A stretch of DNA of 64,000 bases from the NCBI GenBank assembly GCA_014382245.1, contig JACNKC010000057.1, positions 174-64,173 of the forward strand, read 5' to 3'. Under the pieces are notes generated by a model. That model had not been told where the DNA came from and did not search any database. It was given only the letters and a program-made list of their open reading frames with translations. Shown piece by piece: positions 2,021 to 57,602 of the stretch (position 1 is its first letter; every line of letters begins with the position of its first letter). Made by a program: the position numbers and the translations under genes. The DNA comes from Pseudomonadota bacterium. Lineage in GTDB: Bacteria > Desulfobacterota > Binatia > UBA1149.

Positions 2021-2030
2021 CGGGTCTACG

Positions 2031-4550: not shown

Positions 4551-4566
4551 CGTCGTTGTTTCCTTG

Positions 4567-31336: not shown

Positions 31337-31357
31337 GTTGGTCTCTCCCGCTGCCGG

Positions 31358-34900: not shown

Positions 34901-34930
34901 CGTTTGTTCCTCTTGTCCGGGTTGGCTCGC

Positions 34931-35569: not shown

Positions 35570-35678
35570 GCCAGCAACTTAACATTTGACGTTTGTTTGT
35601 CAAGTTGTTAGGGTAGCGTCCGGCTGGAGGCGGTTGGCCACAAGCACCGCCGCAGTGAACGGGGAGAAGAACAACGAC

Positions 35679-36533: not shown

Positions 36534-36579
36534 GCAGGGCCCCGCGGAAGAAGAGAGCTTGAGCGTGGACGCGGCGGCG

Positions 36580-37014
36580 ATGGGAGCCAACCTGGAGCGT
36601 ATTCCCTTTACGCTGGAGATGGGCCTGGTCATAGAGCGACTGCAGGACGGCGAAACGCACATGCTGCTGCCGGCTGGACGGGGCAATCACAACCTGGTGG
36701 GCACGGTACACGCCGGGGCGGTGTTCACCTTTGCAGAAACCGTGGCCGGCGTAGCTGCCGGTGCCGACACGCTCGAGCACGGGTTTCCCTTCGTGCGCAG
36801 CGCCCGGGTGCGCTACCTGAGACCGGGTGACGGCGAGTTGCACGGGCACGCGAGCGTGGAGGCCGAAGACGTAGCGCGGGTGCTGGCCGAGTTGAGCGAG
36901 TACGGTCGTTCGAGACTCAGCGTGTCAGTCAAGATCGAAGACACCGAAGGGCGGCTGGTGGCCGAGCTCGACGTCGACTACGCCTTCAGACCGATAGCGG
37001 GGGAGAAAAAATGA
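36580..37014 (+). CDS. hotdog-fold thioesterase (PaaI/DUF4442-like)
   Basis: NLVGTVHAGAVFTFAETVAG motif typical of PaaI-type thioesterases. An alternative GTG start lies at 36565. Confidence 0.55.
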   Translation: MGANLERIPFTLEMGLVIERLQDGETHMLLPAGRGNHNLVGTVHAGAVFTFAETVAGVAAGADTLEHGFPFVRSARVRYLRPGDGELHGHASVEAEDVARVLAELSEYGRSRLSVSVKIEDTEGRLVAELDVDYAFRPIAGEKK

Positions 37015-37793: not shown

Positions 37794-37816
37794 CAGGCAG
37801 GACGGGAGCAGGGTTC

Positions 37817-40094: not shown

Positions 40095-43000
40095 TCAGCT
40101 CCCGGCCGGCTCGCACACGAACTTCAGTGAATCGGAATCCCGTGTGCCTCGTCCGTTCGTGCCTGGGGTTGAGATCGCCTGCACTTTCAGCTTACCCTTG
40201 CCGGCCCGCGTACCGTCGTTCCTCAGCGGAACCTGAAATTCTACCAGGTCACTGCAGTCACCCTCGACAGTGACCGGCGAGGAGTAGGTTATTTCAGATC
40301 CTGCTCTTCCGCCCAGCGTTGCCTGTCCAGCTGGATCCAGGGACGCTATGGCGTCACGGAGCGCGGTGCCGTTGGCTGCGTCGTGGGGCTTGCGACTGTC
40401 AGGCCTGGGCTTTTTAACCCGTAGCGAATCCACGCCGCTCACCGAGCATGCTAGATCGCCGGTCTTGGGGTCTACGAGGCGAGAGTCATCAAGATTCAGG
40501 CAGGCCGCAAGGCGGAAGACACATACTCCGTTGGCCTGGCCATCTCCGTCGCACACCGGATCACCGTCGCGGCAGGTCTGTTCCGGGTTTATGTAACCTC
40601 TTCTATCGAAGAAGGGGCGGTTGAGGGGGTTGCGTATAGACCACTCCAGCACGCAGTTCTTTTTTGCTGATCCCTTGCCGGGCACGAGGTCACCCGCGGT
40701 TTCGCCCATGTACATGTCGCTGAACTTGCATGTCTCGAACGGCCACACTCCTGTCCCCGATACGGAGGCTGGATCAACGGGGTCAGCATTGTTGTCGTCG
40801 CAGCAGAGCGGCACCGGCGTATCCGGGTCGGCTACACAATCGGCCGTTCTCAGTGAGCAACCGCTTCCAGTGTAGTTGTGTTTACACTTCTTGGTCGCAG
40901 CGGGGAGCATGGGAGTGCTGTTCCGCTTGAGCACCAGGTTCTGCTCCTGCAGGCTCGAGCTGCTCGAGCAGGTACCACCGGCGGGGCAGTTGTCTGGGTT
41001 TTTCTTGCTGCACGGTAGGCCGTCCATGGTGCCGCCCGAGCAGGTGCCCTTGTCTACGAAGCCGTCGTTGATACGATCATCCCAGCACATGCTAACGGTT
41101 ATCGCCGACGCGAACTGGGTGACGCCGGGGGCGGTCGTGTCTTCGGGGGTCAGAATTGCCCGCATGCCAACACCCGCTCCCGCCTCTACCTTGAACTTGT
41201 CACTGCCCGAGCTGTGATCGAAGCCGGTAATGGAAAAACTGGTGTCGGTGGCAATGGCACCAGCTGGTACATCAATGGTAACGCAGCCGTCAGTCGTGGT
41301 GAGCGTGCCTCCGGCAACACCGATGTTCACGCCACCGGACCTAGCCACGGTGCAGTTCTGGTCAGAAAAAGCAGGGCAGTCGTCGCATACATCGCCACCG
41401 TCGCAGCAGCCCTCCTTGCCGACGGGGACCACGCCCGAGCAGCCACCCGAAACCCAGAAAGCGGGGTCGGTACAGTCGTAGTCAGCCTGGTCCGGGTTGT
41501 ACTCGGCGGCGCAGTTGTCATCGGGGTCGCACACGCCGTCGGCGTCTGGATCGGTGCTGTCGCAGGTGTCGGTGGCTTCTTCGCAGTTGTAACAGGTACC
41601 CAGGGCCAGGCAGGGGTCGCCGCCGCTGGTGCAGGCCGCGGCCTGGCAGGTCTCAATGCCCGTGCAGTAAAGCCCGTCGTCCGAGCAGGCCGTTCCGTTG
41701 GCCAGGGCCGGATGCGCGCAGGCGCCCGCGCCATCGCACTGGTCGTCGGTGCATTCGTTGCCGTCGTTCGTGCAGGCTGTTCCCGCACTCACGTCGCAGC
41801 TGTTGGCCGCCTCGTCGCAACTGTCGGCGCACTCGGCGCCACCGACGCAGGGGTCGCCGCCGCTGGTGCAGGCCGCGGCCTGGCAGGTCTCAGCGCCCGT
41901 GCAGTAAAGCCCGTCGTCGGTGCAGGCAGTGTCGTTGGCCACGGCCGGATGCGCGCAGGCGCCCGTGCCGTCGCACACGTCGTCGGTGCATTCGTTGCCG
42001 TCGCTCGTGCAGGCTGTATTCGCCGCCACCGCGCAGCTGTTAGCCGCTTCGTTGCAACTGTCGTCGCATTCGGCGCCACCCACGCAGGGGTCGCCGCCGC
42101 TGGTGCAGGCTCCAGCCTGGCAGGATTCTGAACCAGTACAGTAAAGTCCGTCGTCGGTGCAGACAGTGTCGTTGGCCACCGGCGTGAACACGCAGGCGCC
42201 CAGCGCGCAGGAGTCCGAGGTGCACTCGTTGCCGTCATTGCACACCAGGGTCAGGCAGGGGTCGGGGGCAGGTTCTTTTATTACGTGAGTGGTGCCGTTG
42301 GGGTCGCCTATTCCCGAGCCGCCAACCGATAGATCCAGGGTGCCGTCGCCATCGAGGTCGCCGAGGTCTACGCCCCAGCCGAGATTGCCGTCGTTGACCT
42401 TGCCGTACCAGACCGCCGGTGCGGTGTTTATCGAGGTGTTCAGTCCACTGTAAGTGCCGCCCGAGAGTACAAATACGCCGCCGTTCTGGGCCATTCCGCC
42501 TCCGGAATACAAGGGCGCCCCGATGTAGAGTTCGAGCTTGCCGTCGGCGTCGTAGTCGGCGGCAGCCAGGTCGGTGCCCAGGCGGTCAAACACCGCGTCG
42601 CCGTCTCCTATGCAGCTGTCGGCGCTGGTGTAGGGCGAGGGGTAGTCCACCGGGTAGACCGCGGGCGAAGCCCCTATGGGTCCGTACTTGATGTACACGC
42701 GCGATTCCACCGCCACCCCGTCGCTGGGAGACCCGACCACGAGGTCGTCGATGCCATCGGTGTTGACGTCGGCCACGTCAAGGCCCTGGCCGAACCAGGC
42801 GTCGTCTTTCTTCATGTCGATGCAGGCCGAAGCGACGCAGGAACAGGAGCCGCCACAGGCCGGCGCGCCGTCCATGATGCTCAAGGGCTGGGAGACTGGA
42901 TTGTTGATGGGGCCGTTGGCGCAGAAATTGAACTCGACCACGGCCGCGGTTCCAAGCAGGTATACGCGTCCCGCCCGGGCGAACCCGTGGCGGTGTATGG

Positions 43001-43733
43001 GTGCGCCGACCACGAGATCGACCAGTCCGTCGTTGTCTATGTCGCCGGCTGCCGGGTAGCCGAACATTTCGAGTTGCGCGCCACCGCTCATTATCGAGTA
43101 GCCGTTGCCCCCGGTGTACAGGCGCCAGTTGTCGGCAAATATTTCCTGTCCCCACACGAGTCCCGCCGACTTGTGCAGCACGTGGATGGCACCGCCATCA
43201 ACCTTTACTCCACCCGCTAGGCCGGCCACCGGATCGGCCAGTGGGTCACCGATGATGAGGTCGTTCTGCCCGTCGCAGTCGATGTCGGCAATCTCAAGGC
43301 CCAGGCCGAAACCGCCGCTGCCCGTCAAGGCCGTGGGTGCGTTGATGCGGAAGGCGTTGGGGGCGACGGCGCCGGCTTTGCAAAGCACGCTCACGTCTTC
43401 GGGCGCTGCTCCCATGGCGATGGCCCCGCGTACAAGGCACACGTGGTCGCTGCCGGGCACGCCTATGGCGATGTCGTCAATGCCGTCAGCGTCAAGATCG
43501 CCCACGGCCACGCCGCGGCCCGAATCGGTGGCCAGCGCAGCACCGCCGAGGTAATCGTGGCCGCTCACGGCCTGGGCCGAGACCTCGGCCGGTACCGCCC
43601 AGGCCTGCTGGGCTGTAAGCGTGATGGTGAGCACTGCCAGCGCGAGCAAGGAAAAACCTCGCACTGCGACGCAAGCGCTGCCTGTGCACCCGGGAGCGCT
43701 GCGGTGAATCGACGAATGGTATTCAGTGGTCAT
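40095..43733 (-). CDS. large secreted FG-GAP (integrin-alpha beta-propeller) protein with tandem Cys-rich repeats and a TSP type-3-like Ca-binding motif
   Basis: Signal peptide. At least six FG-GAP repeats (GDLDADGIDDIAIG, IADIDCDGQNDLIIG, AGDIDNDGLVDLVVG, ...). About 3.3 copies of a 79-aa Cys-rich repeat (TACTDDGLYCTGAETCQAAACTSGGDPCVGGAEC...). DADGVCDPDDNCAAEYNPDQADYD TSP3-like motif. Cys-rich C-terminal domain. GGGGGGACAG RBS. Confidence 0.75.
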   Translation of the reverse strand: MTTEYHSSIHRSAPGCTGSACVAVRGFSLLALAVLTITLTAQQAWAVPAEVSAQAVSGHDYLGGAALATDSGRGVAVGDLDADGIDDIAIGVPGSDHVCLVRGAIAMGAAPEDVSVLCKAGAVAPNAFRINAPTALTGSGGFGLGLEIADIDCDGQNDLIIGDPLADPVAGLAGGVKVDGGAIHVLHKSAGLVWGQEIFADNWRLYTGGNGYSIMSGGAQLEMFGYPAAGDIDNDGLVDLVVGAPIHRHGFARAGRVYLLGTAAVVEFNFCANGPINNPVSQPLSIMDGAPACGGSCSCVASACIDMKKDDAWFGQGLDVADVNTDGIDDLVVGSPSDGVAVESRVYIKYGPIGASPAVYPVDYPSPYTSADSCIGDGDAVFDRLGTDLAAADYDADGKLELYIGAPLYSGGGMAQNGGVFVLSGGTYSGLNTSINTAPAVWYGKVNDGNLGWGVDLGDLDGDGTLDLSVGGSGIGDPNGTTHVIKEPAPDPCLTLVCNDGNECTSDSCALGACVFTPVANDTVCTDDGLYCTGSESCQAGACTSGGDPCVGGAECDDSCNEAANSCAVAANTACTSDGNECTDDVCDGTGACAHPAVANDTACTDDGLYCTGAETCQAAACTSGGDPCVGGAECADSCDEAANSCDVSAGTACTNDGNECTDDQCDGAGACAHPALANGTACSDDGLYCTGIETCQAAACTSGGDPCLALGTCYNCEEATDTCDSTDPDADGVCDPDDNCAAEYNPDQADYDCTDPAFWVSGGCSGVVPVGKEGCCDGGDVCDDCPAFSDQNCTVARSGGVNIGVAGGTLTTTDGCVTIDVPAGAIATDTSFSITGFDHSSGSDKFKVEAGAGVGMRAILTPEDTTAPGVTQFASAITVSMCWDDRINDGFVDKGTCSGGTMDGLPCSKKNPDNCPAGGTCSSSSSLQEQNLVLKRNSTPMLPAATKKCKHNYTGSGCSLRTADCVADPDTPVPLCCDDNNADPVDPASVSGTGVWPFETCKFSDMYMGETAGDLVPGKGSAKKNCVLEWSIRNPLNRPFFDRRGYINPEQTCRDGDPVCDGDGQANGVCVFRLAACLNLDDSRLVDPKTGDLACSVSGVDSLRVKKPRPDSRKPHDAANGTALRDAIASLDPAGQATLGGRAGSEITYSSPVTVEGDCSDLVEFQVPLRNDGTRAGKGKLKVQAISTPGTNGRGTRDSDSLKFVCEPAGS
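41560..42290. repeat. about 3 copies of a 237-bp near-identical tandem repeat inside the FG-GAP protein gene
   Basis: The motif GCAGGGGTCGCCGCCGCTGGTGCAGGC recurs at 41610, 41847 and 42084 (period 237 bp = 79 codons) with long near-identical flanks. Confidence 0.8.
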
Positions 43734-45774: not shown

Positions 45775-48000
45775 TCAGCCGCCCGCCGGCGTAAGGAATA
45801 TCGGCGATGACCAGGCGCGGTGGGCGGCCGGCTCCAGGCAGTCGTCGTCGTAGTCGCTGCGGTAGTCGCCGTAGCAGGGGTCGGGCTTGCAGTCGCCCTG
45901 CTCGTCGAATTCGCAACGCGATCCGCCGGCGTTCACCGTGGGCGTGGGCTCTTCGATGGCGCGCGCGTAGTAGAGCGCCTCTCGTTCGCTGCCCAGGAAC
46001 TCGGGGTCGTCGAACTCCACCGTGCAGCCGTCGGCGTCGGCCGGGCAGTCAAAACTGCGCCAGGGGTCGTCGATGAGGTCAGCCACGTCTTCGTCCGGCG
46101 ATTCCTGCGGCCTGATGCGCACCACGTCTATGCGGGTTATCTGCCGGCGTTTTTCGCCCGGGTTGTAGCACTCGCCGCGGCAGAGGTAGGCCAGTCGCTC
46201 GGGTGACAGGCCCGACAGCGATTCTTCGGGGCAGCCCTCGGTCTGCTCAAAGCTGCCGGCCGCGCGTACGCGCAGGCGCGGGTTGTTGGCCAGCTCAAGC
46301 TCACTGCCCATGGGCAGCACCTCGCCGTCGGGGCCGTTGAGGAGGTCAAACCAGAGCAGTATGCGCGGGCCGCTGGTGCCGTAGATTTCGCGGCGTGCCA
46401 TCGAGTCCCAGATCGCTCCGCGATCACGCGCCGGGGAGTGCACCGCCACCAGTCCACCGGTCATGAAGAACGACGCCTGTCGCTCGAAGTCGACTATCTG
46501 TGTGCGCATGGCGGCGGGGTCGCCCGGTGTGACCTGTCGGGACCGGTTTCCCTGCGGCTCGAGGTAGCTGGGCATCAAGCGCTCGGCCCAGGTCTCGTCG
46601 CGGGCACCGGCGGCCTCGGTGTTGGCCTGCCGGTCAAATTCCTTGAAGCCGGTACCGGGGCGGGCGGTGTGGTTGTCGCTCGACGCCATGAAGCCGAAGC
46701 GAAATCGTCGTGGGTCCTTGTCTTCTTCCTCGAAGTTCGAGATCGCCAAGATGTACTGCACCGAGTTGCCCGGCCGGTACGCCATCGAGGGCAGGAAACA
46801 GTCGCTGCATTCGTCGCAGTTGCCCCACTCGACCAGCGGCGCCCACGGGATTGTCAGTCGCCCCGACGGGCTCGCGGCCAGGTAGTTGGCGCGGGCCTCG
46901 ACTATCTTCTCGCGGCACTCATCTGAATCCCGGTCATCGCAGAGATTGCCGATGATCTCACCCGCGCGCCAGCAGCAGGCCTCGAAGCCGGGTTCGGGCG
47001 CTGGGCAGGCATCGGCTCCCTGCTGTTCGAGATCCACGGCCCGCCAGCTGCGGTACTCTTCGCTGTTGCCGTGGCCCGAGAACACCTCGACCAGGGTCTG
47101 TCGTTCGGGATCGTGCATGGCGCCGGCCAGCTGCTTGTCCCAGGTTCCGCCCGGTGGCGAGTAGAGGCCCCAGGTGGTTCCGTGCGGTATGACGATCGAC
47201 TCGTGGCCCCACTGGGCGAGCTTTTCGTAGAGCACGTCGGGTGAGGCCGCTTCTTCCGAGCAGTCCAGGGGTAACTCGCGGGTGTCAACGCCGTCAGCGC
47301 AGATGGGAGTCTCGCCGATTTCTTCCTGGAAGGTGTTGGCGTTGAGGTAGCGCTGGGCGTTCTGCCAGTCGGCCACCACGGGGAACCAGCGCTGGAGGAA
47401 GGTCTGGCGGGTGCGCATGCCCTGTCCGGCCATGCCGCCGGCGTGTATGGGCCGCGCGGGGATCTTGTCGTCGTCGAGGTCGCGCAGGATGACGTTCTTG
47501 TGCCCGTAGTGGCTGTCGGGGGTCATTCCGATCTGCGTCCACTCCCAGCCGAGGTAGGCTACCACGTCGGGGTTGTCGGGGTCACCGGCCAGCTCGTTGC
47601 ACTGGCGAATGGTGTCGGTGGTTTCCTTCCAACGCAGGGGAGTTATGGCCTCTGCGTGGTCGTTGATGCTCCAGAAGTCGAGGTTGGAGCAGTAGCGCGC
47701 AAAGTCGCAGGCGTCGGCCACCGGGTGTGCGCCTTCGCCCTGGAGGATGGGCAGGCTCATCATGAAAGCGTCGGCCGAAAAGGTGGAGTGTACGTGCAGG
47801 TCGCCGAACAGGATCTGCTTGTCTGTTGCACCGGCTTTCGCACGGTTGGCCAGGACATCGGCGGTCGCCGCCTGGCGGGCCGTCTTGTCGGCTGCCATGG
47901 AGTCGGGCTGGCCCGCGCCTTCTATGTTGCCCGGGCCCTCGTGTTGCCCGCAGGCGGCAAGCAACAGGGCGCAGGCAATGGCTGTGTAGAATTTGTTCAT
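45775..48000 (-). CDS. DUF3604-like lipoprotein (PHP-like metal-dependent phosphoesterase fold suspected)
   Basis: Lipobox LLAAC after MNKFYTAIACA. FGDLHVHSTFSADA motif as seen at the N-terminus of DUF3604 proteins. I chose the internal ATG at 48000; the ORF track extends a further 113 Arg-rich codons. Confidence 0.5.
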   Translation of the reverse strand: MNKFYTAIACALLLAACGQHEGPGNIEGAGQPDSMAADKTARQAATADVLANRAKAGATDKQILFGDLHVHSTFSADAFMMSLPILQGEGAHPVADACDFARYCSNLDFWSINDHAEAITPLRWKETTDTIRQCNELAGDPDNPDVVAYLGWEWTQIGMTPDSHYGHKNVILRDLDDDKIPARPIHAGGMAGQGMRTRQTFLQRWFPVVADWQNAQRYLNANTFQEEIGETPICADGVDTRELPLDCSEEAASPDVLYEKLAQWGHESIVIPHGTTWGLYSPPGGTWDKQLAGAMHDPERQTLVEVFSGHGNSEEYRSWRAVDLEQQGADACPAPEPGFEACCWRAGEIIGNLCDDRDSDECREKIVEARANYLAASPSGRLTIPWAPLVEWGNCDECSDCFLPSMAYRPGNSVQYILAISNFEEEDKDPRRFRFGFMASSDNHTARPGTGFKEFDRQANTEAAGARDETWAERLMPSYLEPQGNRSRQVTPGDPAAMRTQIVDFERQASFFMTGGLVAVHSPARDRGAIWDSMARREIYGTSGPRILLWFDLLNGPDGEVLPMGSELELANNPRLRVRAAGSFEQTEGCPEESLSGLSPERLAYLCRGECYNPGEKRRQITRIDVVRIRPQESPDEDVADLIDDPWRSFDCPADADGCTVEFDDPEFLGSEREALYYARAIEEPTPTVNAGGSRCEFDEQGDCKPDPCYGDYRSDYDDDCLEPAAHRAWSSPIFLTPAGG

Positions 48001-48095
48001 CGGCAAGGTAACCCCCTGTGGTTTCGCGGAGCGTGATTTCGCGCAGCGTGAGCCTGCGGAATCTAGCCGTGGCGCCGCGCTGAAAAAAGCGCGCG

Positions 48096-48386
48096 TTACA
48101 GCGCCTGGGGACGGGCTTGCGCCCAGGACTGGAGTTTCTTGATCTGCTCGAGGTCGCCATCCTTGCTGGCTATGCCCTCGTTGCGGGCGTCGTGTATGCA
48201 GTCGACCGGGCACAGCGGCACGCAGAGGTCGCAGTCTATGCACTCCTCCGCGACGATGGCGAAACGGCCCAGGAAATCGCCTGCTACTTCGTAGACCGCG
48301 TCCACCTTGCCGGGGCAGGCGTGATCGCAAGCCCCGCAACCAATGCAGGTGTCGTCTACGTAATAGTGTCCGTGTCGGCGGGCCAT
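48096..48386 (-). CDS. 2[4Fe-4S] ferredoxin
   Basis: CIGCGACDHACP and CIDCDLCVPLCP cluster motifs. 96 aa from the ATG at 48386. Confidence 0.8.
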   Translation of the reverse strand: MARRHGHYYVDDTCIGCGACDHACPGKVDAVYEVAGDFLGRFAIVAEECIDCDLCVPLCPVDCIHDARNEGIASKDGDLEQIKKLQSWAQARPQAL

Positions 48387-48900: not shown

Positions 48901-50078
48901 GGGGCCTGCGTGGGGATACCGCAGCGTTCACTGCGATCAAAGCCGGCACGCCGGCAGCGGCCCAGGTACTCCTCTATGAAATTGCCCCACAGGGCTCCCG
49001 CCTGCTCCAGCCCCTGCTCTATGCGGTTGACTCCCCCTCCCAGTAGTATGGCCAGGGGCTCTATCAGTGCAGCCTCGGTAAACGCCGTCAGTATCACCAT
49101 CTCGCCAACGTCGGCAAAACGGTGCATGTCTTCGAGCGCCGCGTCGCGATCGGGCACGTTGTCGAGGTGGTTCTTGAGCTCCATGACGCCATAGCTCACG
49201 TGGCGGGCTTCGTCCTGCAGGCAGAGGCGAAAGATTTCCTTGTCCACGTGTGTCTTGGCTATCATTTCGCCCGAGCGGAAGATTGACAGTACCAGGCCTT
49301 CGCCGAGCAGGTTCAGCAGGAAGGTGCCCATGGTGTGCGACGGCGCTTCCATGATGGCCTTCAAGGCCCACTCGAAGCCCGGCGACGCGTGCAGCAGGCC
49401 GCCGCCGGCGATGGCGCGCTTGCGAAACACCTCCTGGTGACGGGCCTCGTCCATCAACTGGGTGGCGAGAAAACTCTTCACCTCGAGAAAGTCCTGGGGG
49501 ATGCGGTACAACCACTTGGCCGGAAAGTCACCGGCCACGAACTCGACCTCGGTAAGAAAGGTACACAACTGGCAGGTGGCCTTCTCGAGGTCCTCGGGCA
49601 GGGATTTGAGTTCATCCCAGGGTATGTCGCGGGTAGCGTTCCACTGCCTGGCCTTGGCTTCTTCGTAAAGCGTGATGACGTTCTCGGCCCATAGTTCGTT
49701 GCGATCAACGACGTCGTAGGCTGACAGTACCGGCATACGTTGGGCGTAGGGGTCGCGCACCGAACCACGCGGGGCGAAGTTGAGCCACTCGGCTTTCTCG
49801 GGCATCTGCCCGTAGGGCTCCACCCGGTTTGTGTCGGCGTAGGTCATGCCGCGCGACGACGGCTTGGCGCGTCGTCCCCAGTTGGCCTTGTCGGTCTCCA
49901 TCCAGTGCAGCGAGAACCTGCCGGCCTGCAGGCGCTCACCGTTGTCATTCAGTATCTCGGCCCAGGTGGTCATCTGCTGCCCGAAGGCCAGCTCGTAAGA
50001 TTCCAGGCTTTCTTCGGGCACGGCGTGTTCGGGGGGCAGGGGGCTGAGGTCAGTGGGACTGGCGGCTGGCTTGCTCAT
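48888..50078 (-). CDS. ferritin-like diiron-carboxylate oxygenase (putative hydroxylase/desaturase-type)
   Basis: Two E-x-x-H iron-ligand motifs embedded in DEARH (QLMDEARHQEVF and LQDEARHVSYGV) about 90 aa apart, as in diiron oxygenases. The ATG at 50078 is preferred over the TTG at 50117. Confidence 0.55.
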   Translation of the reverse strand: MSKPAASPTDLSPLPPEHAVPEESLESYELAFGQQMTTWAEILNDNGERLQAGRFSLHWMETDKANWGRRAKPSSRGMTYADTNRVEPYGQMPEKAEWLNFAPRGSVRDPYAQRMPVLSAYDVVDRNELWAENVITLYEEAKARQWNATRDIPWDELKSLPEDLEKATCQLCTFLTEVEFVAGDFPAKWLYRIPQDFLEVKSFLATQLMDEARHQEVFRKRAIAGGGLLHASPGFEWALKAIMEAPSHTMGTFLLNLLGEGLVLSIFRSGEMIAKTHVDKEIFRLCLQDEARHVSYGVMELKNHLDNVPDRDAALEDMHRFADVGEMVILTAFTEAALIEPLAILLGGGVNRIEQGLEQAGALWGNFIEEYLGRCRRAGFDRSERCGIPTQAPWLQ

Positions 50079-50150
50079 GGCGGCTTCGCTTACAACAACT
50101 ATTGACAAATCACTCAATAGCGCTAAGAGTGTAGCTCACTGGAAGCTGTC

Positions 50151-50768
50151 GTGTCAAGGAACACAACTAGCAATAAAAAAAAACGCCGCCGGCTTTCGCC
50201 CGAACAGCGCAGTGAAGAGCTCATAGAGGCGGCCGTGGCGGTGTTCGCCCGCCTGGGATTGGGGCGGGCGGGCCACGCCCAGGTGGCCGAAGAGGCGGGT
50301 TGCGCGGTGTCGACGGTGTTCGTGTACTTTCCGAGCCGCGAAAGCCTGGTCGACGCGGTGATCGCCGAGGTGGCCGGCTTTCTCCTGGAGATGGCCGAGA
50401 GCGTCCACGGCTCCGGTGGCCCGGCGCCGGAGGTCGTGCGCCGTCATGCTCGCGCGTTCGTAGAAGGCGTCAATCGCCGTCCCGACGTGGCGCGGGTGTG
50501 GCTCGACTACAGCACGGCCGTGGGCGAGGACACCTGGCCGCGCTACCTCGAGCTGCAGGAAAAGATCGTGGCCATCATGCGTGACACCATTGAGCGCGGG
50601 CAGGGCGAGGGCAGCGTCGCAGCCGACGTTGACGCTGACGACGACGCCAGGCTGGTGGTAGGCTCGGCCCACATGCTCGCGCAGATGAAGTTCGCCGGCC
50701 GGCCGGACGACCAGGTTGAACATTTTCTCAACACGCTGGTGGGCCTGACCATGCGACCGCCGGCGTAG
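50151..50768 (+). CDS. TetR/AcrR family transcriptional regulator
   Basis: HTH motif (AQVAEEAGCAVSTVFVYFPSRESL). GTG start with GGAAG RBS. Confidence 0.8.
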   Translation: MSRNTTSNKKKRRRLSPEQRSEELIEAAVAVFARLGLGRAGHAQVAEEAGCAVSTVFVYFPSRESLVDAVIAEVAGFLLEMAESVHGSGGPAPEVVRRHARAFVEGVNRRPDVARVWLDYSTAVGEDTWPRYLELQEKIVAIMRDTIERGQGEGSVAADVDADDDARLVVGSAHMLAQMKFAGRPDDQVEHFLNTLVGLTMRPPA

Positions 50769-50834
50769 CTTGACCGATGGCCCCCACGGGAGTGCAGGTG
50801 TCATCGGCGCTTGCACTGGGCGCGGGGGGACAGG

Positions 50835-51614
50835 ATGCTGGCCGCCATGCTGGCTCAGGGTAGTGCTGCCGCTGAACTTGCCGGCCGCGTGGCGGTCGTC
50901 ACCGGGGCCTCGCGCGGAATTGGCGAAGCCGTTGCCCGTTGTCTTGTTGATGCCGGCGCCAGGGTAGCCTTGCTGGCCCGAGGACGTGAGCGACTCGAGC
51001 GCGTCGCCGCCGGGCTGGGCGCGCAGGCGCTGGCCGTACCGACCGATGTTGCCGATGCGGACAGCGTGCGCGCTGCTTTTGTTACCGTAGCGCGTGAGTT
51101 CGGCCGGCTGGACCTGCTGGTCAACAACGCTGCCATCGGCCGCCTGCACTCTATCGAAGAGGCCTCCGACGCGGATCTGCGTGAGACCGTCTACACCAAC
51201 CTCGGCGGCCCGCTGTTGTGCAGCCGCGAGGCCGTGCCTCTCATGAAGAAATCGGGTGGAGGGCAGATCGTCAACATAGGCTCGGAGGCGGTGCTCAATC
51301 CTTTTCCGTTGTTGTCGACCTACACCGCCACCAAGGCCGGCCTGGAGTTGTTTAACCGTGGGCTGCGGGCCGAGTTACGCGGCGACAACATCCGGGTGAC
51401 CCTGCTAAGGTCGGGGGCGACCAGCGGCGGCTTCATGGAAGACTGGGATCCCGACGAAGCCGCGCGCGCGATCGGGCTGTGGGACGAGCAAGGCTACCTC
51501 GCCTTCGCGGGCGCGCCCATGCAGCCCTCGACCGTGGCCGAGTCGCTGTTGCACGCCGTCACCCGCCCGGCAGGCGCGAGCGTGGATACCCTCGAACTCA
51601 GGTCGGCTGGCTGA
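50835..51614 (+). CDS. SDR family oxidoreductase
   Basis: GRVAVVTGASRGIG Rossmann motif. YTATKAGLE catalytic YxxxK. Confidence 0.8.
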   Translation: MLAAMLAQGSAAAELAGRVAVVTGASRGIGEAVARCLVDAGARVALLARGRERLERVAAGLGAQALAVPTDVADADSVRAAFVTVAREFGRLDLLVNNAAIGRLHSIEEASDADLRETVYTNLGGPLLCSREAVPLMKKSGGGQIVNIGSEAVLNPFPLLSTYTATKAGLELFNRGLRAELRGDNIRVTLLRSGATSGGFMEDWDPDEAARAIGLWDEQGYLAFAGAPMQPSTVAESLLHAVTRPAGASVDTLELRSAG

Positions 51615-51617
51615 CGG

Positions 51618-52250
51618 TCAGTGGGTGGCCTTGAGGCCGCCGAGCAGCAGGTCAAGCCAGCGGTCGAGCAGGGGGCCGTCCAGGGGCTCCTTGAACACGC
51701 CCTTGTTGGTGGCCATCTGTATGACACCGTTCAGGCCCGCCCAGAACAGCGCCGTAGTTTCCCTGATGTCGAGGTCGCGAAGCAGTCCCTGGTCGACGCC
51801 GTCGGCGATCACCCTGGCAACAGTGCCCATGGCGTGCCTCGTTCCGGTGTAGGCTCGCTCAACCAGTGCCTGCTCTTCTTCGTTCGCAGGCGCGAGCGTC
51901 TGGCTCTGAAGGCAGTGGATGATGGCCTGGGCCTCCGGGTGCGCCTCGATGAAACGGCAGTAGGTGAGCGAGATGCGCTGCAGTCTCTGCAGCGGGTCTC
52001 CGTTGCCTGACGATACGCTCTCGAGTTCGGGCAGGATCAACTCTATCGCGCGCACCAGTACCGCCAGGTAGAGGATCTCCTTGCTGGAGAAGTAGTAGTA
52101 GAGCGTGGCTATGTTGAGCTCGCTGCGATCGGCGATGTCCTGCATGGAGGTGGTGTTGTAGTCCCTGTCGGTGAACAGCTCGGTGGCGGCGCTGACGATG
52201 GCGTATTTTCGCGCTTCGCGCTCGCGACTCCTTCTTTCCTGTATTCCCAT
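51618..52250 (-). CDS. TetR/AcrR family transcriptional regulator
   Basis: HTH motif (TTSMQDIADRSELNIATLYYYFSSKE). Confidence 0.8.
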   Translation of the reverse strand: MGIQERRSREREARKYAIVSAATELFTDRDYNTTSMQDIADRSELNIATLYYYFSSKEILYLAVLVRAIELILPELESVSSGNGDPLQRLQRISLTYCRFIEAHPEAQAIIHCLQSQTLAPANEEEQALVERAYTGTRHAMGTVARVIADGVDQGLLRDLDIRETTALFWAGLNGVIQMATNKGVFKEPLDGPLLDRWLDLLLGGLKATH

Positions 52251-52310
52251 TGCTGCTGTTCCCCCGGGTGGGGGTGGCCGTCACCGTGGCGATAGACCTC
52301 CCACCGGGGC

Positions 52311-52396
52311 CAAGTCTATCAAGTGTCAATTGAAGTGCAAGTCTGACTTGACAAAGGGGGTAGGGAGGGGTTATTTATGATTCAAGTGAGACTTGA
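52311..52396. promoter_or_regulatory. cluster of short palindromes built on CAAGT/ACTTG half-sites; candidate operator array for the divergent TetR
   Basis: CAAGTC-T-GACTTG (52338-52350), TCAAGT-GAG-ACTTGA (52382-52396) and TCAATTGA (52325-52332) read directly from the sequence. Located between the TetR start (52250) and the acylase start (52495). Confidence 0.5.
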
Positions 52397-52494
52397 GAAG
52401 CCGTGGCGGTGCCCGTGGGGCCGTCACCGACCGGCACCGCGACGCGCCGGCCGAAATTGGCTATGCTACTGAAAACACTGGAGGAAAGGGCATC

Positions 52495-54705
52495 ATGGCG
52501 AGAACAGGTAAACAAGGAGTGGTGGCTCTGCTGTCGGAATTGCTGCTTGCCGGAAGCGCGCAGGCCTGGCAGGCCGAAATCGCCAGGGATCGCTACGGGG
52601 TGCCCTACATTATCGCCGATACCATGGCCGATGCCGCCTTCGGCGACGGCTACGCCCAGGCGGCCGACCGGGGCAAGGAGGCCTTCGAGCTCATACTGGC
52701 GGCTACCGGCACCAGCGCGGCCAGCCTGGGCGCTGGAAACACCTCCAGTGCGTGCCCCGAGGGCAAGAACGTCTGCAACGACATGCAGGCACGGCTGACC
52801 GGGGTCTATCGCACGGCCTACGCCCAGTGGACCGCCATACCCGCCGAGGTTCAGGAGATCGCGTCGGCCTTTGCGGCAGGTGCCAATCTCTGGGGTCTCG
52901 AGAACGCCGGTGAGCTTCCACCCGGCGCCCGTCCGCTGACCGGCCAGGACATAATAGCCTACGCCCAGTACACCGGCGTGGCCCGCCAGTTGCTGCAGGC
53001 CACAAAAGAGAAAGCCCAGGAAGGCCAGGACACCGAGTGCGGTGAGGGCTCAAACGGCGTCGTGCTGGCCAACTCGCTCACGGGCAACAAGGGCGTGATC
53101 CTGCAGGTGGATCCGCACACGCCCTGGTCGGGCTTCAACCGCTGGTACGAGAAGGCCTACGTTACACCGGACACCGTTATTCACGGGGGAGGCCCCACTG
53201 GCCTGCCCTTGTTCCTGTTTGCCACCTCGGATCGCGTGGGATGGGCGCTGACCCGTAACTCGGGTGACCGGGGCGACTGTTTCTATGTAACCCCGGACCC
53301 CGCCGACCCCTTGCGTTACATGTACGATGGCGCGTCGCTGCCGCTTTCGAGCGTAACTGAAACCATCGAGGTAAAGGATTCGTCGTCGGTTCAGTTCGAG
53401 GTGCTGTCAACGCAGCACGGACCGATATTCGCCAAGGAGGGGGGGCTCTACTACGCGGCCGCCATGAGCATGGAAAACCGCACGGGAGTGTTGGGGCAGA
53501 TGCTGGCCATGGCCGGGGCCGACAGCGCAACGGAACTGGATGCCGCGTTTTCGATGATGGAGATCGATGGCGCCCAGGCAATGTACGGTGACGTCGATGG
53601 CAACATCGGCTACGCCTGGCTCAATCGCTTGCGCGATCGCGACGACTCTTACTACTGGGAGTACTGCGTGGATGGCAGCATATCGGCCACTGCCCTGGGT
53701 GCCGTGCTCGACTTCGCCAGCCTTCCCGGTTCCACCAACGACCCGGGCGGTTACTACCAGGCGTGCAACCAGCCCGACTGGCTGGTCAACGGCGGAGCCT
53801 GGGGGATAGACCCATGGAGCTATCCCGGTTGGCTGCGCGGCAGGGATTTTGTCCGCGACTATCTCGGCGCGAGAGCGCAGCGCGTGGTGGACCTCATACA
53901 GTCCAGGCAGCGGCACTCGCATGGCCGCGCGCGCAAGAGTTCGCTGGACACCGCGCTGCTGGGCGCGGTGTGGATGATTCCGGTGCTGGAACGGGCAATG
54001 GCACAGTACGGTGACGGCGGAGATCCGCTGGTGCAGAACGCATTTTCGGAGCTATTGCGCTTCAAGCGCAAACCGCGGGCCACGGCCAGGTCACGTGGCT
54101 ATGCCCTGTGGCACGAATGGAACGGCTACTGGGTGCAGGACGCGGTGCTCGGCAGCGCACCACCCGCCTCGCCCGAGGTTTCGCGCATACGCGAATTCTA
54201 CGACCTGCCCGATCATCCCGAAACCGTGAGCGATCTCGACCTGCAGCGAGCCCACCAGGCCTTTCTCGACGCTGTCGCCCACCTGAACAGTTACTACCTG
54301 GCCGGGCACTACGATTCGCCGCTGCCGCGCTGGGGAGACATTAACTTCATACAGTTGGCCGACGGGTCGAAGTACGGCTTCGGCGGCTCCGACGGCGAGT
54401 TGCAGGGTATATGGCAGGGTAGCCACGGCGGTGGTTCCTGCGGGGCCTTTCCTAATCCCTCTGCCGATGGCACCTGGACCATTAACGCCGGGTCGGACTT
54501 CATGATGTCGTCGCAACTGCGCACCCTGCCCAGGCTGCCGAAGGTCTACACGCTTGTCCCCTACGGAGTGAGCAACGACCCGGCCTCGCCTCATTTTGCC
54601 GACCAGACGCGGCGCTACGTGAAGGGCAAGTACAAGAAGGTGCCTTTCGGCGAGAAAGATGTCCGTCGCAAGGCCAAGTCGATAGTGACCGTGAGCGGCA
54701 GCTGA
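52495..54705 (+). CDS. penicillin acylase family Ntn-hydrolase (PvdQ/QuiP-like acyl-homoserine-lactone acylase candidate), secreted
   Basis: Signal peptide (AGSAQA). Alpha-subunit start QAWQAEIARDRYGVPYIIADT. Internal GEGSNGVVLA with a Ser-Asn candidate beta-subunit N-terminal nucleophile. GGAGGAAAGGG RBS. Confidence 0.8.
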   Translation: MARTGKQGVVALLSELLLAGSAQAWQAEIARDRYGVPYIIADTMADAAFGDGYAQAADRGKEAFELILAATGTSAASLGAGNTSSACPEGKNVCNDMQARLTGVYRTAYAQWTAIPAEVQEIASAFAAGANLWGLENAGELPPGARPLTGQDIIAYAQYTGVARQLLQATKEKAQEGQDTECGEGSNGVVLANSLTGNKGVILQVDPHTPWSGFNRWYEKAYVTPDTVIHGGGPTGLPLFLFATSDRVGWALTRNSGDRGDCFYVTPDPADPLRYMYDGASLPLSSVTETIEVKDSSSVQFEVLSTQHGPIFAKEGGLYYAAAMSMENRTGVLGQMLAMAGADSATELDAAFSMMEIDGAQAMYGDVDGNIGYAWLNRLRDRDDSYYWEYCVDGSISATALGAVLDFASLPGSTNDPGGYYQACNQPDWLVNGGAWGIDPWSYPGWLRGRDFVRDYLGARAQRVVDLIQSRQRHSHGRARKSSLDTALLGAVWMIPVLERAMAQYGDGGDPLVQNAFSELLRFKRKPRATARSRGYALWHEWNGYWVQDAVLGSAPPASPEVSRIREFYDLPDHPETVSDLDLQRAHQAFLDAVAHLNSYYLAGHYDSPLPRWGDINFIQLADGSKYGFGGSDGELQGIWQGSHGGGSCGAFPNPSADGTWTINAGSDFMMSSQLRTLPRLPKVYTLVPYGVSNDPASPHFADQTRRYVKGKYKKVPFGEKDVRRKAKSIVTVSGS

Positions 54706-54775: not shown

Positions 54776-55270
54776 ATGAAGCGTAGCCAGCAGGAAGTAG
54801 ACGCCCTACTCGCCGAGCTGGAGCAGGCCCACGGGTTGGGCGGCATTAATCCTGACCGGGGCCAGCTGCTCGAACTGTTGTCAGACGACAGCGACAGGGC
54901 AGACGGGACGAGACCGCTGCTGTACGTCAACCTGCTTCGCTTCTACGACCACGCTCGCTATCCCGCCGGCCATGAACTGGCCGAGGCGGGCATGAGCGGT
55001 GAGCAGGCCTACACCCTGTATGGCATCGCCGCCCTGGCCGAGGTCGAGAAACGCGGAGGCTGTCTTCCCCTATGGGGCACTGCCGAGCAGCTCGTCATCG
55101 GCGAGACCGACCACTGGGACCAGGTGGCTGTCATGCAGTACCCCGACCGCGAGGCTTTCATCGACATGATACGCGACCCCGACTACCAGGCATCGCTGGT
55201 ACATCGCAGGGCCGGACTGGAAAAGACCGTGGTCATCATCACCCGTTCCCTGTTACACGGCGCCGCCTGA
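54776..55270 (+). CDS. DUF1330-like domain protein (hypothetical)
   Basis: C-terminal VAVMQYPDREAFIDMIRDPDYQASL resembles the DUF1330 consensus (F.S.E.A..W..SPEYQ). Confidence 0.4.
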   Translation: MKRSQQEVDALLAELEQAHGLGGINPDRGQLLELLSDDSDRADGTRPLLYVNLLRFYDHARYPAGHELAEAGMSGEQAYTLYGIAALAEVEKRGGCLPLWGTAEQLVIGETDHWDQVAVMQYPDREAFIDMIRDPDYQASLVHRRAGLEKTVVIITRSLLHGAA

Positions 55271-55454
55271 CCGCGGAGGGCGCCCGCTTGCTGCGTTCCG
55301 GATACGGGAACGTCACCCCTGCTTGTCGATGTTGCGAACCGCTGTGCTGCTTTCCCGGTTCTGCTCACAAACCTTGTTATTCTGGAGGCCTGGGTAACGG
55401 CAAGCGCACAGAAAGCTATTGACAGCAGTACTCCTGCGGGCTTAGCTTAAGCCG

Positions 55455-56636
55455 TTGGGAAACTACCTGGACAACCTTGCCCTGTCGGCCCGGTCTGCCG
55501 CCAACACCCTCAGCGACACCTGGAAGGGTTACCGCGAAAGCGACCTGCGCCTGCGGGTCCCGCGGCCCGGCCCGTCGTTGGGCGCGATGGCGGAAGCCGC
55601 CCTCGACAGGGGATTTGCGCTGGCCGCCAACCTGGCGGCGGGGCGTAACCTTGAAGAACGAATCTCCAAGGGCTTCGCCCAGCTGGCAGACGCCGAGCAG
55701 TTGTTTGAGCAACGAGGTTGGCTGGCCGACCCGTCCGGCTACCATCGCGACCCGCCGCCGGTCGAAGAAGTATCACTGGGACGCGCCGTGTCTCAGCAGG
55801 GGCTCCGGCGGTTGCAGTACCAGCAGCTGAGTTACCCCAGCCTCTACGAGCCCTGGCCGAGCGAGCCGGGCCGCGAGCGCTGGCAGGCGCTGGAGCCCAA
55901 CCGTCGCTTTCACGCTTACGTGCTTCGCTACCCGGGCCCGCCGCGCCCGTGGCTGGTGTGTGTTCACGGCTTCGGCATGGGAGGACCGGCCACCGCGTTC
56001 ACCGGTTTCAACGCGCGCAAACTTCACAGCGAGCTCGGCTTGAATCTCGCGTTTCCCGTTTTGCCGCTGCACGGTCCACGCGCACCCGGCAGGGCCAGCG
56101 GTCGTGAACTGCTGGCCGCCGATTTCATGTCGATGGTCTACTGCTTCGCGCAGGCTGCCTGGGATCTGCGGCGACTGGTCGGTTGGCTCAAGAGCGAAGA
56201 CGGCCAGCCGGTGGGCTTGTACGGACTGTCGCTCGGCTCGCTCACTGCTTCACTCAGCAGCGGGCTGGAGTCGGCCGACTGCGTGATTGCCGGCATACCC
56301 GCCGTCGATTTTGCCGGCCTCGTGCGTGACAACGAGATCCCTATACCTGGCCGCAAGCCGCTCGCCAGCGAGCAGGGCTACCAGCGACTCGCGCGGGTGA
56401 CGAGCGTGGTCAACCCGCTGAGTTTCGCTCCGCAGGTGGCCAGGGACAAGCGTTTTATTTTTGCCGGCCTGGCCGACCGCCTGGCCCGGCCTTACCAGGC
56501 CGACGCGCTGTGGCGGCACTGGGGACGACCGCCGGTGCACTGGTTCGACGGTGCCCACGTTACCTACCTCATGAAGTCCAGCGTTCAACGCTTCGTGGAG
56601 TCGTCGCTGGCCACTGCCGGCCTGACCTGGCACTGA
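55455..56636 (+). CDS. alpha/beta hydrolase
   Basis: YGLSLGS nucleophile elbow and VCVHGFGMGGP-type motif. TTG start in the ORF track; the true start is uncertain. Confidence 0.55.
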   Translation: MGNYLDNLALSARSAANTLSDTWKGYRESDLRLRVPRPGPSLGAMAEAALDRGFALAANLAAGRNLEERISKGFAQLADAEQLFEQRGWLADPSGYHRDPPPVEEVSLGRAVSQQGLRRLQYQQLSYPSLYEPWPSEPGRERWQALEPNRRFHAYVLRYPGPPRPWLVCVHGFGMGGPATAFTGFNARKLHSELGLNLAFPVLPLHGPRAPGRASGRELLAADFMSMVYCFAQAAWDLRRLVGWLKSEDGQPVGLYGLSLGSLTASLSSGLESADCVIAGIPAVDFAGLVRDNEIPIPGRKPLASEQGYQRLARVTSVVNPLSFAPQVARDKRFIFAGLADRLARPYQADALWRHWGRPPVHWFDGAHVTYLMKSSVQRFVESSLATAGLTWH

Positions 56637-56735
56637 CACTCCCGCTTTCTCCCCAGCTTTTGTTTCTTCTCGCCGACGCGTGTAGCGACGGTCACTGGCG
56701 CGTTGATTTTTCGTGGCGTGCCGCGGGGACCTGCT

Positions 56736-57602
56736 ATGAATTATAAAACCGAAACCCTGGTGTCGGGCCTGGCCTTTGCCGAAGGCCCACGGTGGAAGGA
56801 CGGCCGCCTCTACTATTCTGACATGCACCGTTGCGTGGTGGAGTCGGTGGACGAAAGCGGTTCTGTCGAACTGGTGTGCCGGGTGGAGCAGTCGCCCTCG
56901 GGCTTAGGCTGGTTGCCCGACGACGGTGCGGCCGACGCGGGTCGCATGCTGGTGGTTTCCATGCGCGACCGGCGCTTGCTGCGCCTGGACCCCGACGGCC
57001 TGGTCGAGGTGGCCGACCTGTCGGGCCTGGCCACCTGGCACTGCAACGACATGGTGGTCGATGAGCAGGGGCGCGCCTACGTGGGCAACTTCGGCTCGGA
57101 CATCTACGGTGACGATCCCACGCCCAGCGATGCGCTCCTGCTCATGGTAGAACGAGACGGCGCCGTCAGTGTAGCCGCCGACAAGATGAAATTTCCCAAC
57201 GGTGCCGTGATCACGCCCGACGGTAGTACCTTGATCATCTGCGAAACCTTTGCCGGCTGCTTGACGGCCTTCGACATAGCCGCCGATGGGTCGCTGTCGG
57301 GCCGCCGCAGCTGGGCCGAACTGGAGGGCGTGGCCCCCGACGGGTGTTGCCTGGACGCCGAGGGCGCCATCTGGGTGGCCACGGTATTCGGAAACCAGCT
57401 GTTGCGCGTGCACGAAGGGGGCCGCATCAGCGACCGCGTGGAGCTGGCCAGCGAATCGTTTGCCTGCATGCTGGGCGGTGAAGACGGGCGCACGTTGTTT
57501 ATCTGCGCGGCCCCGACCTCGGAACCCGAAGAAGCGCTTGAGCAGCTGGGTGGCAGCATTGAGCTGGTGCGCGTTGAGGTGCCCCGCGCGGGACGGCCGT
57601 AA
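56736..57602 (+). CDS. SMP-30/gluconolactonase/LRE-like family protein (six-bladed beta-propeller lactonase)
   Basis: MNYKTETLVSGLAFAEGPRWKDGRLYYSDM N-terminus typical of the family. GGGGA RBS. Confidence 0.8.
   Translation: MNYKTETLVSGLAFAEGPRWKDGRLYYSDMHRCVVESVDESGSVELVCRVEQSPSGLGWLPDDGAADAGRMLVVSMRDRRLLRLDPDGLVEVADLSGLATWHCNDMVVDEQGRAYVGNFGSDIYGDDPTPSDALLLMVERDGAVSVAADKMKFPNGAVITPDGSTLIICETFAGCLTAFDIAADGSLSGRRSWAELEGVAPDGCCLDAEGAIWVATVFGNQLLRVHEGGRISDRVELASESFACMLGGEDGRTLFICAAPTSEPEEALEQLGGSIELVRVEVPRAGRP

Follow-up and report, generated by a model that had tools for sequence, protein, structure and literature searches.

The window, by which we mean the whole 64-kb stretch of DNA that was analyzed, contains a divergent gene pair. 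The first gene encodes a TetR-family regulator of 210 amino acids (positions 51618-52250, minus strand; MBC8292533.1; PF00440), which we propose as the repressor of the pair, and the second encodes an acylase precursor of 736 amino acids (52495-54705, plus strand; MBC8292534.1; PF01804). The two are separated by a gap of 244 bp. All the coordinates given for them in an earlier note on this DNA agree with the open reading frames.

The regulator has a TetR-type helix-turn-helix domain at its N-terminus (PF00440 at 5.1e-15, 55 bits against a cut-off of 24 bits). Its AF2 model (pLDDT 88.5) is all-helical with nine helices, and almost all of the best 50 listed Foldseek matches in the PDB are described as TetR-family regulators. 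The best structural match is DarR, an actinobacterial TetR regulator with 25% identity, but the Foldseek E-values do not set DarR apart from FadR, PfmR and RutR; together with KstR2 these neighbors all fall at E 1e-8 to 1e-6. Because neighbors with different ligands score alike, we abandoned the prediction of a ligand from the fold, and no evidence pointed to a nucleotide ligand.

A second, distal TetR gene is found at 50151-50768. Its product is probably of the LuxR/HapR type: its PDB matches to OpaR, HapR, LuxR and SmcR lie at 2e-32 to 6e-19, whereas generic TetRs reach 2e-7, but it scored 87 bits against the 350-bit cut-off of the NCBIfam equivalog model. The earlier note had described a TetR-SDR-TetR arrangement at this place. 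As a conserved unit this arrangement did not hold, since of its three genes the proximal TetR alone accompanies the acylase; a TetR-SDR unit was likewise discarded, the SDR of the window giving merely generic matches of 31-34% to SDRs elsewhere.

The predicted secreted acylase and its candidate substrates

The acylase matches PF01804 at 1.8e-92 over residues 27-724 of 736 (311.9 bits against a threshold of 21.3). The precursor is predicted to consist of a signal peptide (residues 1-24), an alpha chain reaching to about residue 170, a spacer at about 171-185 and a beta chain starting with SNGVV at Ser186 (codon 53050-53052, plus strand), the N-terminal nucleophile position. The predicted signal peptide, judged by eye, is MARTGKQGVVALLSELLLAGSAQA and ends directly before WQAE; a site just before [WY]QAEIARD is common to the homologues P0002 and P0003. 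All of 20 acylase family members have Ser186, Asn187, His208 and Asn425. In the alignment with cephalosporin acylase (3s8r), the counterparts of Ser186, His208 and Asn425 are Ser1-beta, His23-beta and Asn244-beta, which identifies the internal Ser-Asn nucleophile candidate suggested earlier as Ser186-Asn187. In the AF2 model of the acylase (pLDDT 76.8) the pLDDT falls below 50 at residues 177-184, in the expected spacer just before Ser186, and Foldseek returned a TM-score of 0.78 to 1keh/3s8r (E 2e-37). Family profile, catalytic residues and predicted fold all support the Ntn-hydrolase organization that the earlier note had proposed and, judged from alignments and model, the protein is a genuine PF01804 Ntn-hydrolase.

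The clade to which this acylase belongs is small and known only from metagenomes, and is set apart from everything else by a gap in score from 593 to 272 bits. We placed it by ranking PDB entries on sequence, profile and fold. In all three, the closest solved relative is the class I glutaryl-7-ACA (cephalosporin) acylase of Pseudomonas/Brevundimonas (1keh, 3s8r, 1fm2), which aligns over the full length at 23-24% identity with the catalytic residues kept, followed by MacQ, D-succinylase and PvdQ. In structure, MacQ (an AHL/beta-lactam acylase of Acidovorax) and the D-succinylase of Cupriavidus come next, at 18-20% identity and TM-scores of about 0.65-0.69; their alpha chains and spacers are larger. 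PvdQ, the AHL and pyoverdine-precursor acylase of Pseudomonas aeruginosa, belongs to the same superfamily and has the secreted heterodimer design that is predicted here, and its segment from His23-beta to Tyr33-beta is equal in length and similar in sequence (a local match). However, only part of the beta chain aligns, and a pyoverdine/NRPS context is absent here.

Arg57-beta and Tyr33-beta of class I glutaryl-7-ACA acylase bind the glutaryl carboxylate. In the alignment at 23-24% identity their places are taken by Leu241 and Trp217 respectively; Leu is the family consensus at 241 and Trp217 is nearly invariant. On the strength of these two aligned residues, a hydrophobic N-acyl compound is a more likely substrate than glutaryl-7-ACA. 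The enzyme could still be a beta-lactam (glutaryl-7-ACA or penicillin) acylase in an antibiotic-responsive resistance or scavenging switch, given that its top solved relatives are glutaryl-7-ACA acylases, whose full-length alignments reach 8e-81 with the family profile and the TM-score given above. We nevertheless regard this as highly improbable: identity is low, about 130 unnamed database representatives are nearer to the query than glutaryl-7-ACA acylase, both carboxylate-binding residues are replaced, and a physiological role on beta-lactams is doubted even for the enzymes named after them (PMC5474475).

The earlier note had likened the acylase to the AHL acylases PvdQ and QuiP. This assignment was not borne out by the PvdQ equivalog model NF051460, on which the protein scored 105.2 bits against a cut-off of 950. 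The note had also taken a grouping with glutaryl acylases as speaking against an AHL acylase, and class I glutaryl-7-ACA acylase is what we found closest. Such a grouping is a weak guide to substrate because PvdQ, itself discovered through its likeness to a glutaryl acylase, differs from that enzyme in substrate (PMC5474475). The presence of Leu241 at the place of the glutaryl-binding arginine weakens it further. A PvdQ/QuiP-type enzyme within a ligand-controlled quorum-quenching switch would be in keeping with the fold and catalytic apparatus common to AHL acylases, with a local match of residues 196-321 to residues 12-141 of the PvdQ beta chain, with Leu241, which suits a hydrophobic acyl chain, and with the LuxR/HapR-type regulator gene 1.7 kb upstream; a review moreover makes the case that many 'beta-lactam' acylases could plausibly serve in nature to hydrolyze AHLs (PMC5474475). 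Three family members are called acyl-homoserine-lactone acylase in the JGI automatic annotation, but automatic names carry no evidential weight. In contrast, the PvdQ model was missed widely, the cephalosporin acylase is nearest by every ranking, and the SY-77 glutaryl acylase reportedly does not act on AHLs (PMC5474475). None of the other five loci described below has the HapR-like gene, and the neighborhood of the acylase is catabolic. Among the about 50 ORFs of the window none encodes an AHL synthase (LuxI), a LuxR-type receptor or a siderophore NRPS, and pyoverdine genes are missing. We therefore consider such an AHL acylase switch unlikely, AHL quenching by this enzyme being possible but unsupported.

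Palindromic units between the two genes

The palindromes named in the earlier note were all found, CAAGTCTGACTTG at 52338-52350, TCAAGTGAGACTTGA at 52382-52396 and TCAATTGA at 52326-52333. A repeat search resolved them into three 15-bp units of the form TCAAGT-N3-ACTTGA, to which no strand is assigned. O1 (TCAAGTGTCAATTGA, 52319-52333) matches the consensus at 11 of 12 positions and opens a tandem pair with O2 (GCAAGTCTGACTTGA, 52337-52351; also 11/12), the start of which lies 18 bp from that of O1. O3 (52382-52396) is a perfect match (12/12) and the top-scoring site of the window. One more isolated CAAGT half-site is present on the plus strand at 52311-52315, 9 bp upstream of O1.

When the whole 64-kb window was searched for CAAGTN3ACTTG with at most one mismatch, O1, O2 and O3 were the sole matches, and 6 of the window's 46 CAAGT/ACTTG pentamers sit in this 0.4% of its sequence. 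The core of the region (52300-52409) has 51% GC compared with 65% for the window, and each unit is able to form a 6-bp hairpin, as might be expected if the repeats had arisen by chance in an AT-rich promoter region, or were RNA hairpins of a leader element. Yet when the intergenic region, or the AT-richer core itself, was shuffled 20,000 times with dinucleotides preserved, no shuffle contained even two matches, against three observed. This confirms that the repeated palindromes are real and non-random. As for an RNA element, it is the half-site sequence itself that is conserved across loci, beyond mere pairing ability. Both versions of this explanation are hardly credible to us. A search of positions 50000-53000 gave no Rfam match at E up to 1, and a leader RNA element was rejected, the leader folds of the six loci being unremarkable and not conserved (z of -1.6, +0.9, +0.9, -0.6, -2.5 and +0.6).

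The units coincide with a putative promoter of the acylase gene. The right half-site of O2 followed by CA builds a candidate -35 hexamer, TTGACA (52348-52353, plus strand), and O2 would thus overlap the likely -35 element; a putative -10 hexamer, TATTTA (52372-52377, plus strand), is a weak match (3/6). The combination TTGACA-N18-TATTTA scored 9/12 in a looser promoter scan, while a stricter scan for the sigma-70 consensus found no promoter in the region. A like design, TTGACA-N18-TAnnnn on an operator half-site, is present in two other loci, L022 (TTGACA-N18-TAGAGT) and L103 (TTGACA-N18-TATACT). O3 likely covers the expected transcription start of the acylase gene, which the model places near 52383-52386. 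Reading of the sequence further places a Shine-Dalgarno motif, GGAGG, at 52480-52484 (plus strand), 10 nt before the ATG at 52495. An alternative TTG start at 52393, which would give a version of 770 amino acids, was dropped because the ATG is preceded by this motif and opens a signal-like peptide.

Conservation of the motif with the TetR gene

We found five further metagenomic loci (L006, L007, L022, L103 and L104) with an orthologous TetR (50-54% identity). The same motif is present in the intergenic region next to the orthologous TetR gene in all five, and in six out of six loci, the window included, the starts of two units lie exactly 18 bp apart (in L104 by inspection). Divergent orientation is kept, with intergenic lengths of about 171-283 bp. 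In L006, L007, L022 and L103 the divergent partner is an acylase homologue. In the fifth, L104, the partner of the TetR orthologue (54% identity) is a non-homologous, secreted, esterase-like gene of 524 amino acids and the motif is still present, which indicates that it is the TetR, not the acylase, that the motif accompanies.

A weight matrix made solely from the sites of the window was then run over the other loci. The orthologous intergenic regions, which make up 1-7% of each locus, hold the first and second ranks in L006 and L103, the first in L022 and L104, and the second and third in L007, where the right half of the sites is degenerate (8-9 of 12). Acylase homologues without this TetR (L011-L016) had no site with one mismatch or less. 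Five other loci, L001-L005, are strain variants and are uninformative on conservation because their intergenic DNA is identical. A search of metagenome contigs with the TetR alignment gave generic TetRs only (at most 40% identity over the N-terminus), none of them adjoining an acylase.

The palindromes might be bound by another regulator, either the distal LuxR/HapR-type TetR or a global factor, with the proximal TetR acting elsewhere. A second TetR gene is indeed close by, and a gap of more than 200 bp weakens the rule that divergent TetR regulators act on their neighbor (PMC3511530). However, the HapR-like protein has a different, perfect palindrome of its own, TATTGA-N8-TCAATA at 50100-50119, unlike the CAAGT motif; its gene is missing from L006, L007, L022, L103 and L104, and each of these loci has the CAAGT motif; and the motif co-occurs solely with the orthologous TetR, whose recognition helix has the invariant segment N-[IV]-A-T-x-Y-Y-Y. 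We hold binding by another regulator to be quite improbable. The palindromes are, from this comparison, most likely the binding sites of the adjoining TetR-type repressor controlling a secreted amide-cleaving enzyme.

A TetR-type switch for the acylase

The repeated-operator architecture proposed in the earlier note is upheld, and the operator reading is now stronger because orthologous TetR loci offer comparative evidence, the motif and its 18-bp phasing recurring in five further loci. We think it likely that the pair forms a self-contained two-gene switch of the TetR/tetA type, in which the TetR sits on the operators and the acylase is repressed until a ligand releases it. The TetR would bind as dimers to the 15-bp pseudo-palindromes, O1 and O2 forming a 33-bp composite site with starts 18 bp apart that is probably occupied by two dimers. 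One listed DarR-DNA entry is titled dimer-of-dimers and is a possible precedent for such double loading. Bound repressor would block transcription of the acylase, because O2 overlaps the -35 hexamer and O3 lies over the expected start, and probably that of its own gene too. Release would come from a small-molecule ligand, which may be either the enzyme's acyl substrate or the acid, fatty or organic, that is set free from it, and the regulated product would be a secreted, self-processing Ntn-hydrolase amidase with Ser186 as nucleophile.

Gene switches of this type are well known. In the TetR paradigm two 15-bp palindromic operators lie between the divergent genes, and other family members have two to three palindromes per intergenic region (PMC3511530). 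As in TetR/tetA, SimR-simX, QacR-qacA and ActR-actA, a regulator with an N-terminal helix-turn-helix is divergent to its target, and two to three 15-bp palindromic operators overlap the promoter in the shared gap (PMC3511530). The present pair differs in that the target is a predicted secreted Ntn-hydrolase and not an efflux pump, that a tandem operator pair with fixed phasing is joined by a third site, and that the gap, at 244 bp, exceeds that of most validated cases. Beyond 200 bp of intergenic DNA, divergent TetR regulators less reliably repress their neighbor (PMC3511530); the gap here slightly exceeds this rule of thumb, which counts against the repressor model. As a standard TetR/operator divergon the finding is sound but ordinary.

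A broader reading is that the TetR-acylase pair is a portable module that senses and destroys an N-acylated signal or lipid outside the cell, with a cooperative two-dimer operator of 33 bp. We regard this as speculative, and slightly less probable than the AHL acylase switch. The targets of such a module could be AHLs, N-acyl amino acids or lipopeptides, and its repressor could sense the acyl compound or the released acid. If it were true, the clade would represent a new substrate class among Ntn-hydrolases, and the recurrence of unrelated alpha/beta-hydrolase-like partners would point to a two-step deacylation pathway. Otherwise the locus is one more case in the very large set of TetR/target divergons, answering no open question. 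The pair offers a testable operator and repressor from uncultured bacteria, with a 15-bp consensus, fixed phasing and six natural variants, and a regulatory handle on an acylase clade without a characterized member. An inducer, if found, would probably reveal the natural substrate of the clade, which sequence comparison alone cannot.

The long acylase homologues P0002 and P0003 carry a C-terminal extension of about 430 amino acids. We considered a fusion with the downstream genes of the window (DUF1330 and an ORF of 393 amino acids) and rejected it, there being no similarity; the extension also showed no likeness to the 524-amino-acid partner in L104 and matched no Pfam family. In Opitutales and Pirellulales a PF10142 gene adjoins acylase homologues. 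The fused extension, the PF10142 neighbor and the esterase-like target of the TetR in L104 are all associations with unrelated alpha/beta-hydrolase-like genes or domains.

Repeated palindromes between the TetR and acylase genes

The gap between the TetR ORF (51618-52250, minus strand) and the acylase ORF (52495-54705, plus strand) is 244 bp. The coordinates and sequences that the earlier note gave for both ORFs and for the palindromes were all correct on re-check, and a repeat finder resolved the named palindromes into three 15-bp units, O1 (TCAAGTGTCAATTGA, 52319-52333), O2 (GCAAGTCTGACTTGA, 52337-52351) and O3 (TCAAGTGAGACTTGA, 52382-52396), with an additional CAAGT half-site at 52311. When the 64-kb window was scanned for CAAGTN3ACTTG at no more than one mismatch, O1, O2 and O3 were the only matches (3 observed versus about 1 expected in the whole window). 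The striking feature of these sites is their clustering, not the whole-window count by itself: two or more matches occurred in none of 20,000 dinucleotide-preserving shuffles, either of the intergenic region or, separately, of its AT-richer 110-bp core.

The operator core is flanked by the only two copies in the window of the 11-mer GGCCGTCACCG (52276 and 52419, 143 bp apart), and each copy falls within, or borders on, the loop of a GC-rich inverted repeat (52262-52309 and 52402-52444). The leader fold around them was not significant when tested and no counterpart was seen in the other loci; the duplication is possibly due to chance.

Conservation of the motif with the TetR gene

The acylase sequence is the same as that of NCBI entry MBC8292534.1, a Pseudomonadota MAG protein, and strain-level copies of the locus (L001-L005) have intergenic DNA identical to the window and are hence uninformative. 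In four other loci, L007, L006, L022 and L103, an acylase homologue (60, 57, 46 and 45% identity, respectively) has directly upstream a divergent TetR gene orthologous to that of the window. The orthologous TetRs share 50-54% identity with the window TetR, and their recognition-helix segment is invariant in the alignment. A weight matrix trained on the three window sites alone and then run over the other loci gave its top two ranks to the orthologous intergenic region in L006 and L103, its first rank in L022 and L104, and its second and third in L007. In every locus the second unit begins exactly 18 bp past the first, the one in L104 being weaker and recognized by inspection; by our own binomial estimate the chance of an 8/12 match at a random position is about 0.003.

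L104 serves as one control: its TetR orthologue (54% identity) stands opposite a 524-aa gene that is not homologous to the acylase, and the motif is kept. The second control consists of acylase homologues without this TetR, from MAGs of Opitutales, Pirellulales and Nitrospiraceae; no site at up to one mismatch was present there. The motif therefore goes with the TetR and not with the acylase. This conservation across loci lends strong support to the repeated-operator architecture proposed in the earlier note, and the comparison of sequences strongly supports the palindromes as probable operators of the adjacent TetR. In this part of L104 (330-2083), the 524-aa protein encoded opposite the TetR gene and its tandem operator begins with a signal-like sequence, contains the HGG and G-T-S-A-G motifs characteristic of esterases/lipases, ends in a hydrophobic, basic tail and matched no Pfam family.

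Only the TetR-acylase pair is conserved across loci, the flanking genes being different in each. The TetR-SDR-TetR arrangement is not conserved as one unit: none of the other TetR-acylase loci has the distal TetR (50151-50768), and for the SDR between it and the proximal TetR no specific counterpart is present elsewhere. From its PDB matches, the distal TetR appears specifically LuxR/HapR/OpaR/SmcR-like (2e-32 to 6e-19, versus 2e-7 for generic TetRs); it scores 87 bits on the NCBIfam HapR model, which requires 350. A perfect TATTGA-N8-TCAATA palindrome, the single exact match in 64 kb, lies 31 nt upstream of its start (50100-50119). Its family is large and environmental (more than 120 clusters at 40-60% identity), and many of these relatives are named hemagglutinin/protease regulators by JGI.

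Putative promoter and proposed mode of repression

Where the right half-site ACTTGA is followed by CA, the junction reads as a perfect TTGACA, and promoter-like elements aimed at the partner gene were found in the window (TTGACA-N18-TATTTA), L022 (TTGACA-N18-TAGAGT) and L103 (TTGACA-N18-TATACT). Because a stricter promoter scan found no promoter, we treat this assignment as putative. O2 would lie over the -35 element of the acylase promoter, and O3 would cover its start of transcription some 100 nt before the ATG. The constant 18-bp spacing points to a 33-bp composite site that may bind two dimers; a dimer-of-dimers complex is named in the title of one DarR-DNA entry, which ranks among the closest structural matches to the TetR model. 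In the fold search DarR, FadR, PfmR, KstR2 and RutR score alike, so the search does not identify the ligand. Residues 1-15 of the TetR form a conserved arginine-rich arm (MG-x-x-ERR-x-RERE-A-RK) ahead of the HTH, which recalls the minor-groove-binding N-terminal extension of SimR reported in the title of PMC3241653.

The arrangement is of the classical TetR type: in the tetR-tetA intergenic region TetR itself acts on two palindromic operators of 15 bp, and the intergenic regions of other family members contain two or three palindromes each (PMC3511530). The same source finds the neighbour rule less reliable above 200 bp, a caution that applies to this pair because its gap exceeds that distance. 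The system belongs to a very well known type, a TetR-family repressor with a divergent target. Its main value is as a well-defined operator-repressor pair usable to find the inducer, which could lead to the substrate of an uncharacterised acylase clade.

The acylase, its relatives and its genomic context

The acylase matches PF01804 over its whole length (1.8e-92). Ser186-Asn187, His208 and Asn425 do not vary among 20 family members, and Ser186, His208 and Asn425 occupy the positions of Ser1-beta, His23-beta and Asn244-beta in the alignment with cephalosporin acylase. In the AF2 model (mean pLDDT 76.8) confidence falls at residues 177-184, exactly the expected position of the spacer peptide. 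The Ntn-hydrolase organisation noted earlier is borne out by the family match and the invariant residues, which identify the predicted enzyme as a real Ntn-hydrolase acylase. JGI calls a 770-aa version (P0035) from TTG 52393, inside O3; ATG 52495 is preferred as the start, since a GGAGG lies 10 nt before it and the signal-like peptide begins there.

No support was found for the PvdQ/QuiP-type label. The protein scores 105 bits on the PvdQ equivalog model, against a cut-off of 950. Among solved structures, class I glutaryl-7-ACA acylase is the nearest relative on three measures: sequence (1e-36, full length), family profile (8e-81; PvdQ and D-succinylase reach 2e-52 and MacQ 2e-36) and fold (TM-score 0.78); identity is only 23-24%. 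In that enzyme the glutaryl carboxylate is bound by Arg57-beta and Tyr33-beta, whose aligned positions in the present protein are Leu241 and Trp217. The acylase is thus not a PvdQ orthologue, and it is not credible as a glutaryl acylase either. Since PvdQ was itself identified through similarity to glutaryl acylase and the two differ in substrate (PMC5474475), sequence grouping cannot settle specificity. When 1.84 billion cluster representatives were searched exhaustively, a small, discrete clade emerged, with six representatives at 46% identity or more and the next match at 34% (a drop from 593 to 272 bits). Clade members, and those next-closest relatives that were checked, are all from metagenomes or MAGs.

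The two closest homologues, P0003 (L006, 10001-13591) and P0002 (L007, 8532-12020), at 57-60% identity, are both extended at the C-terminus by about 430 aa of Cys-rich sequence that includes an A-H-S-G-G motif; this extension had no Pfam match and no similarity to the window genes downstream of the acylase. In L018-L021 (Pirellulales and related contigs), acylase homologues of 40-42% identity lack the TetR and are each directly followed by a 464-aa PF10142 (PhoPQ-activated pathogenicity-related) gene, a second repeated association of the clade with another probable hydrolase.

The window is rich in catabolic genes (glycyl-radical enzyme and activase, amidohydrolases, TauD dioxygenases, P450, acyl-CoA synthetase, acyl-CoA dehydrogenases and enoyl-CoA hydratases) and its 64 kb hold no AHL synthase, LuxR-type receptor or NRPS, a setting in which scavenging of an acylated compound is more likely than dedicated interference with a signal. 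A PFL-like glycyl-radical enzyme (839 aa), a radical-SAM activase and a 970-aa molybdopterin oxidoreductase lie at 914-7479. The beta-oxidation-type cluster (28878-38965: acyl-CoA synthetase, two acyl-CoA dehydrogenases, two enoyl-CoA hydratases) includes a third TetR (34931-35569), and a 1212-aa FG-GAP repeat protein is encoded at 40095-43733. Downstream of the acylase (54776-57602) are genes for a DUF1330 protein, a 393-aa ORF and an SMP-30/gluconolactonase-type protein, none of them kept beside the acylase in other loci. The 393-aa ORF has a G-L-S-L-G motif and weak matches to alpha/beta hydrolases; it also weakly matches the RcgR 'quorum lactone hydrolase' model, scoring 25 bits against a required 182. 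Both the window (45775-48339) and L007 (3566-5503) have a DUF3604 gene a few kb upstream of the TetR-acylase pair, and in L006, L007 and L008 Amidohydro_3 genes are found repeatedly in the vicinity of the pair.
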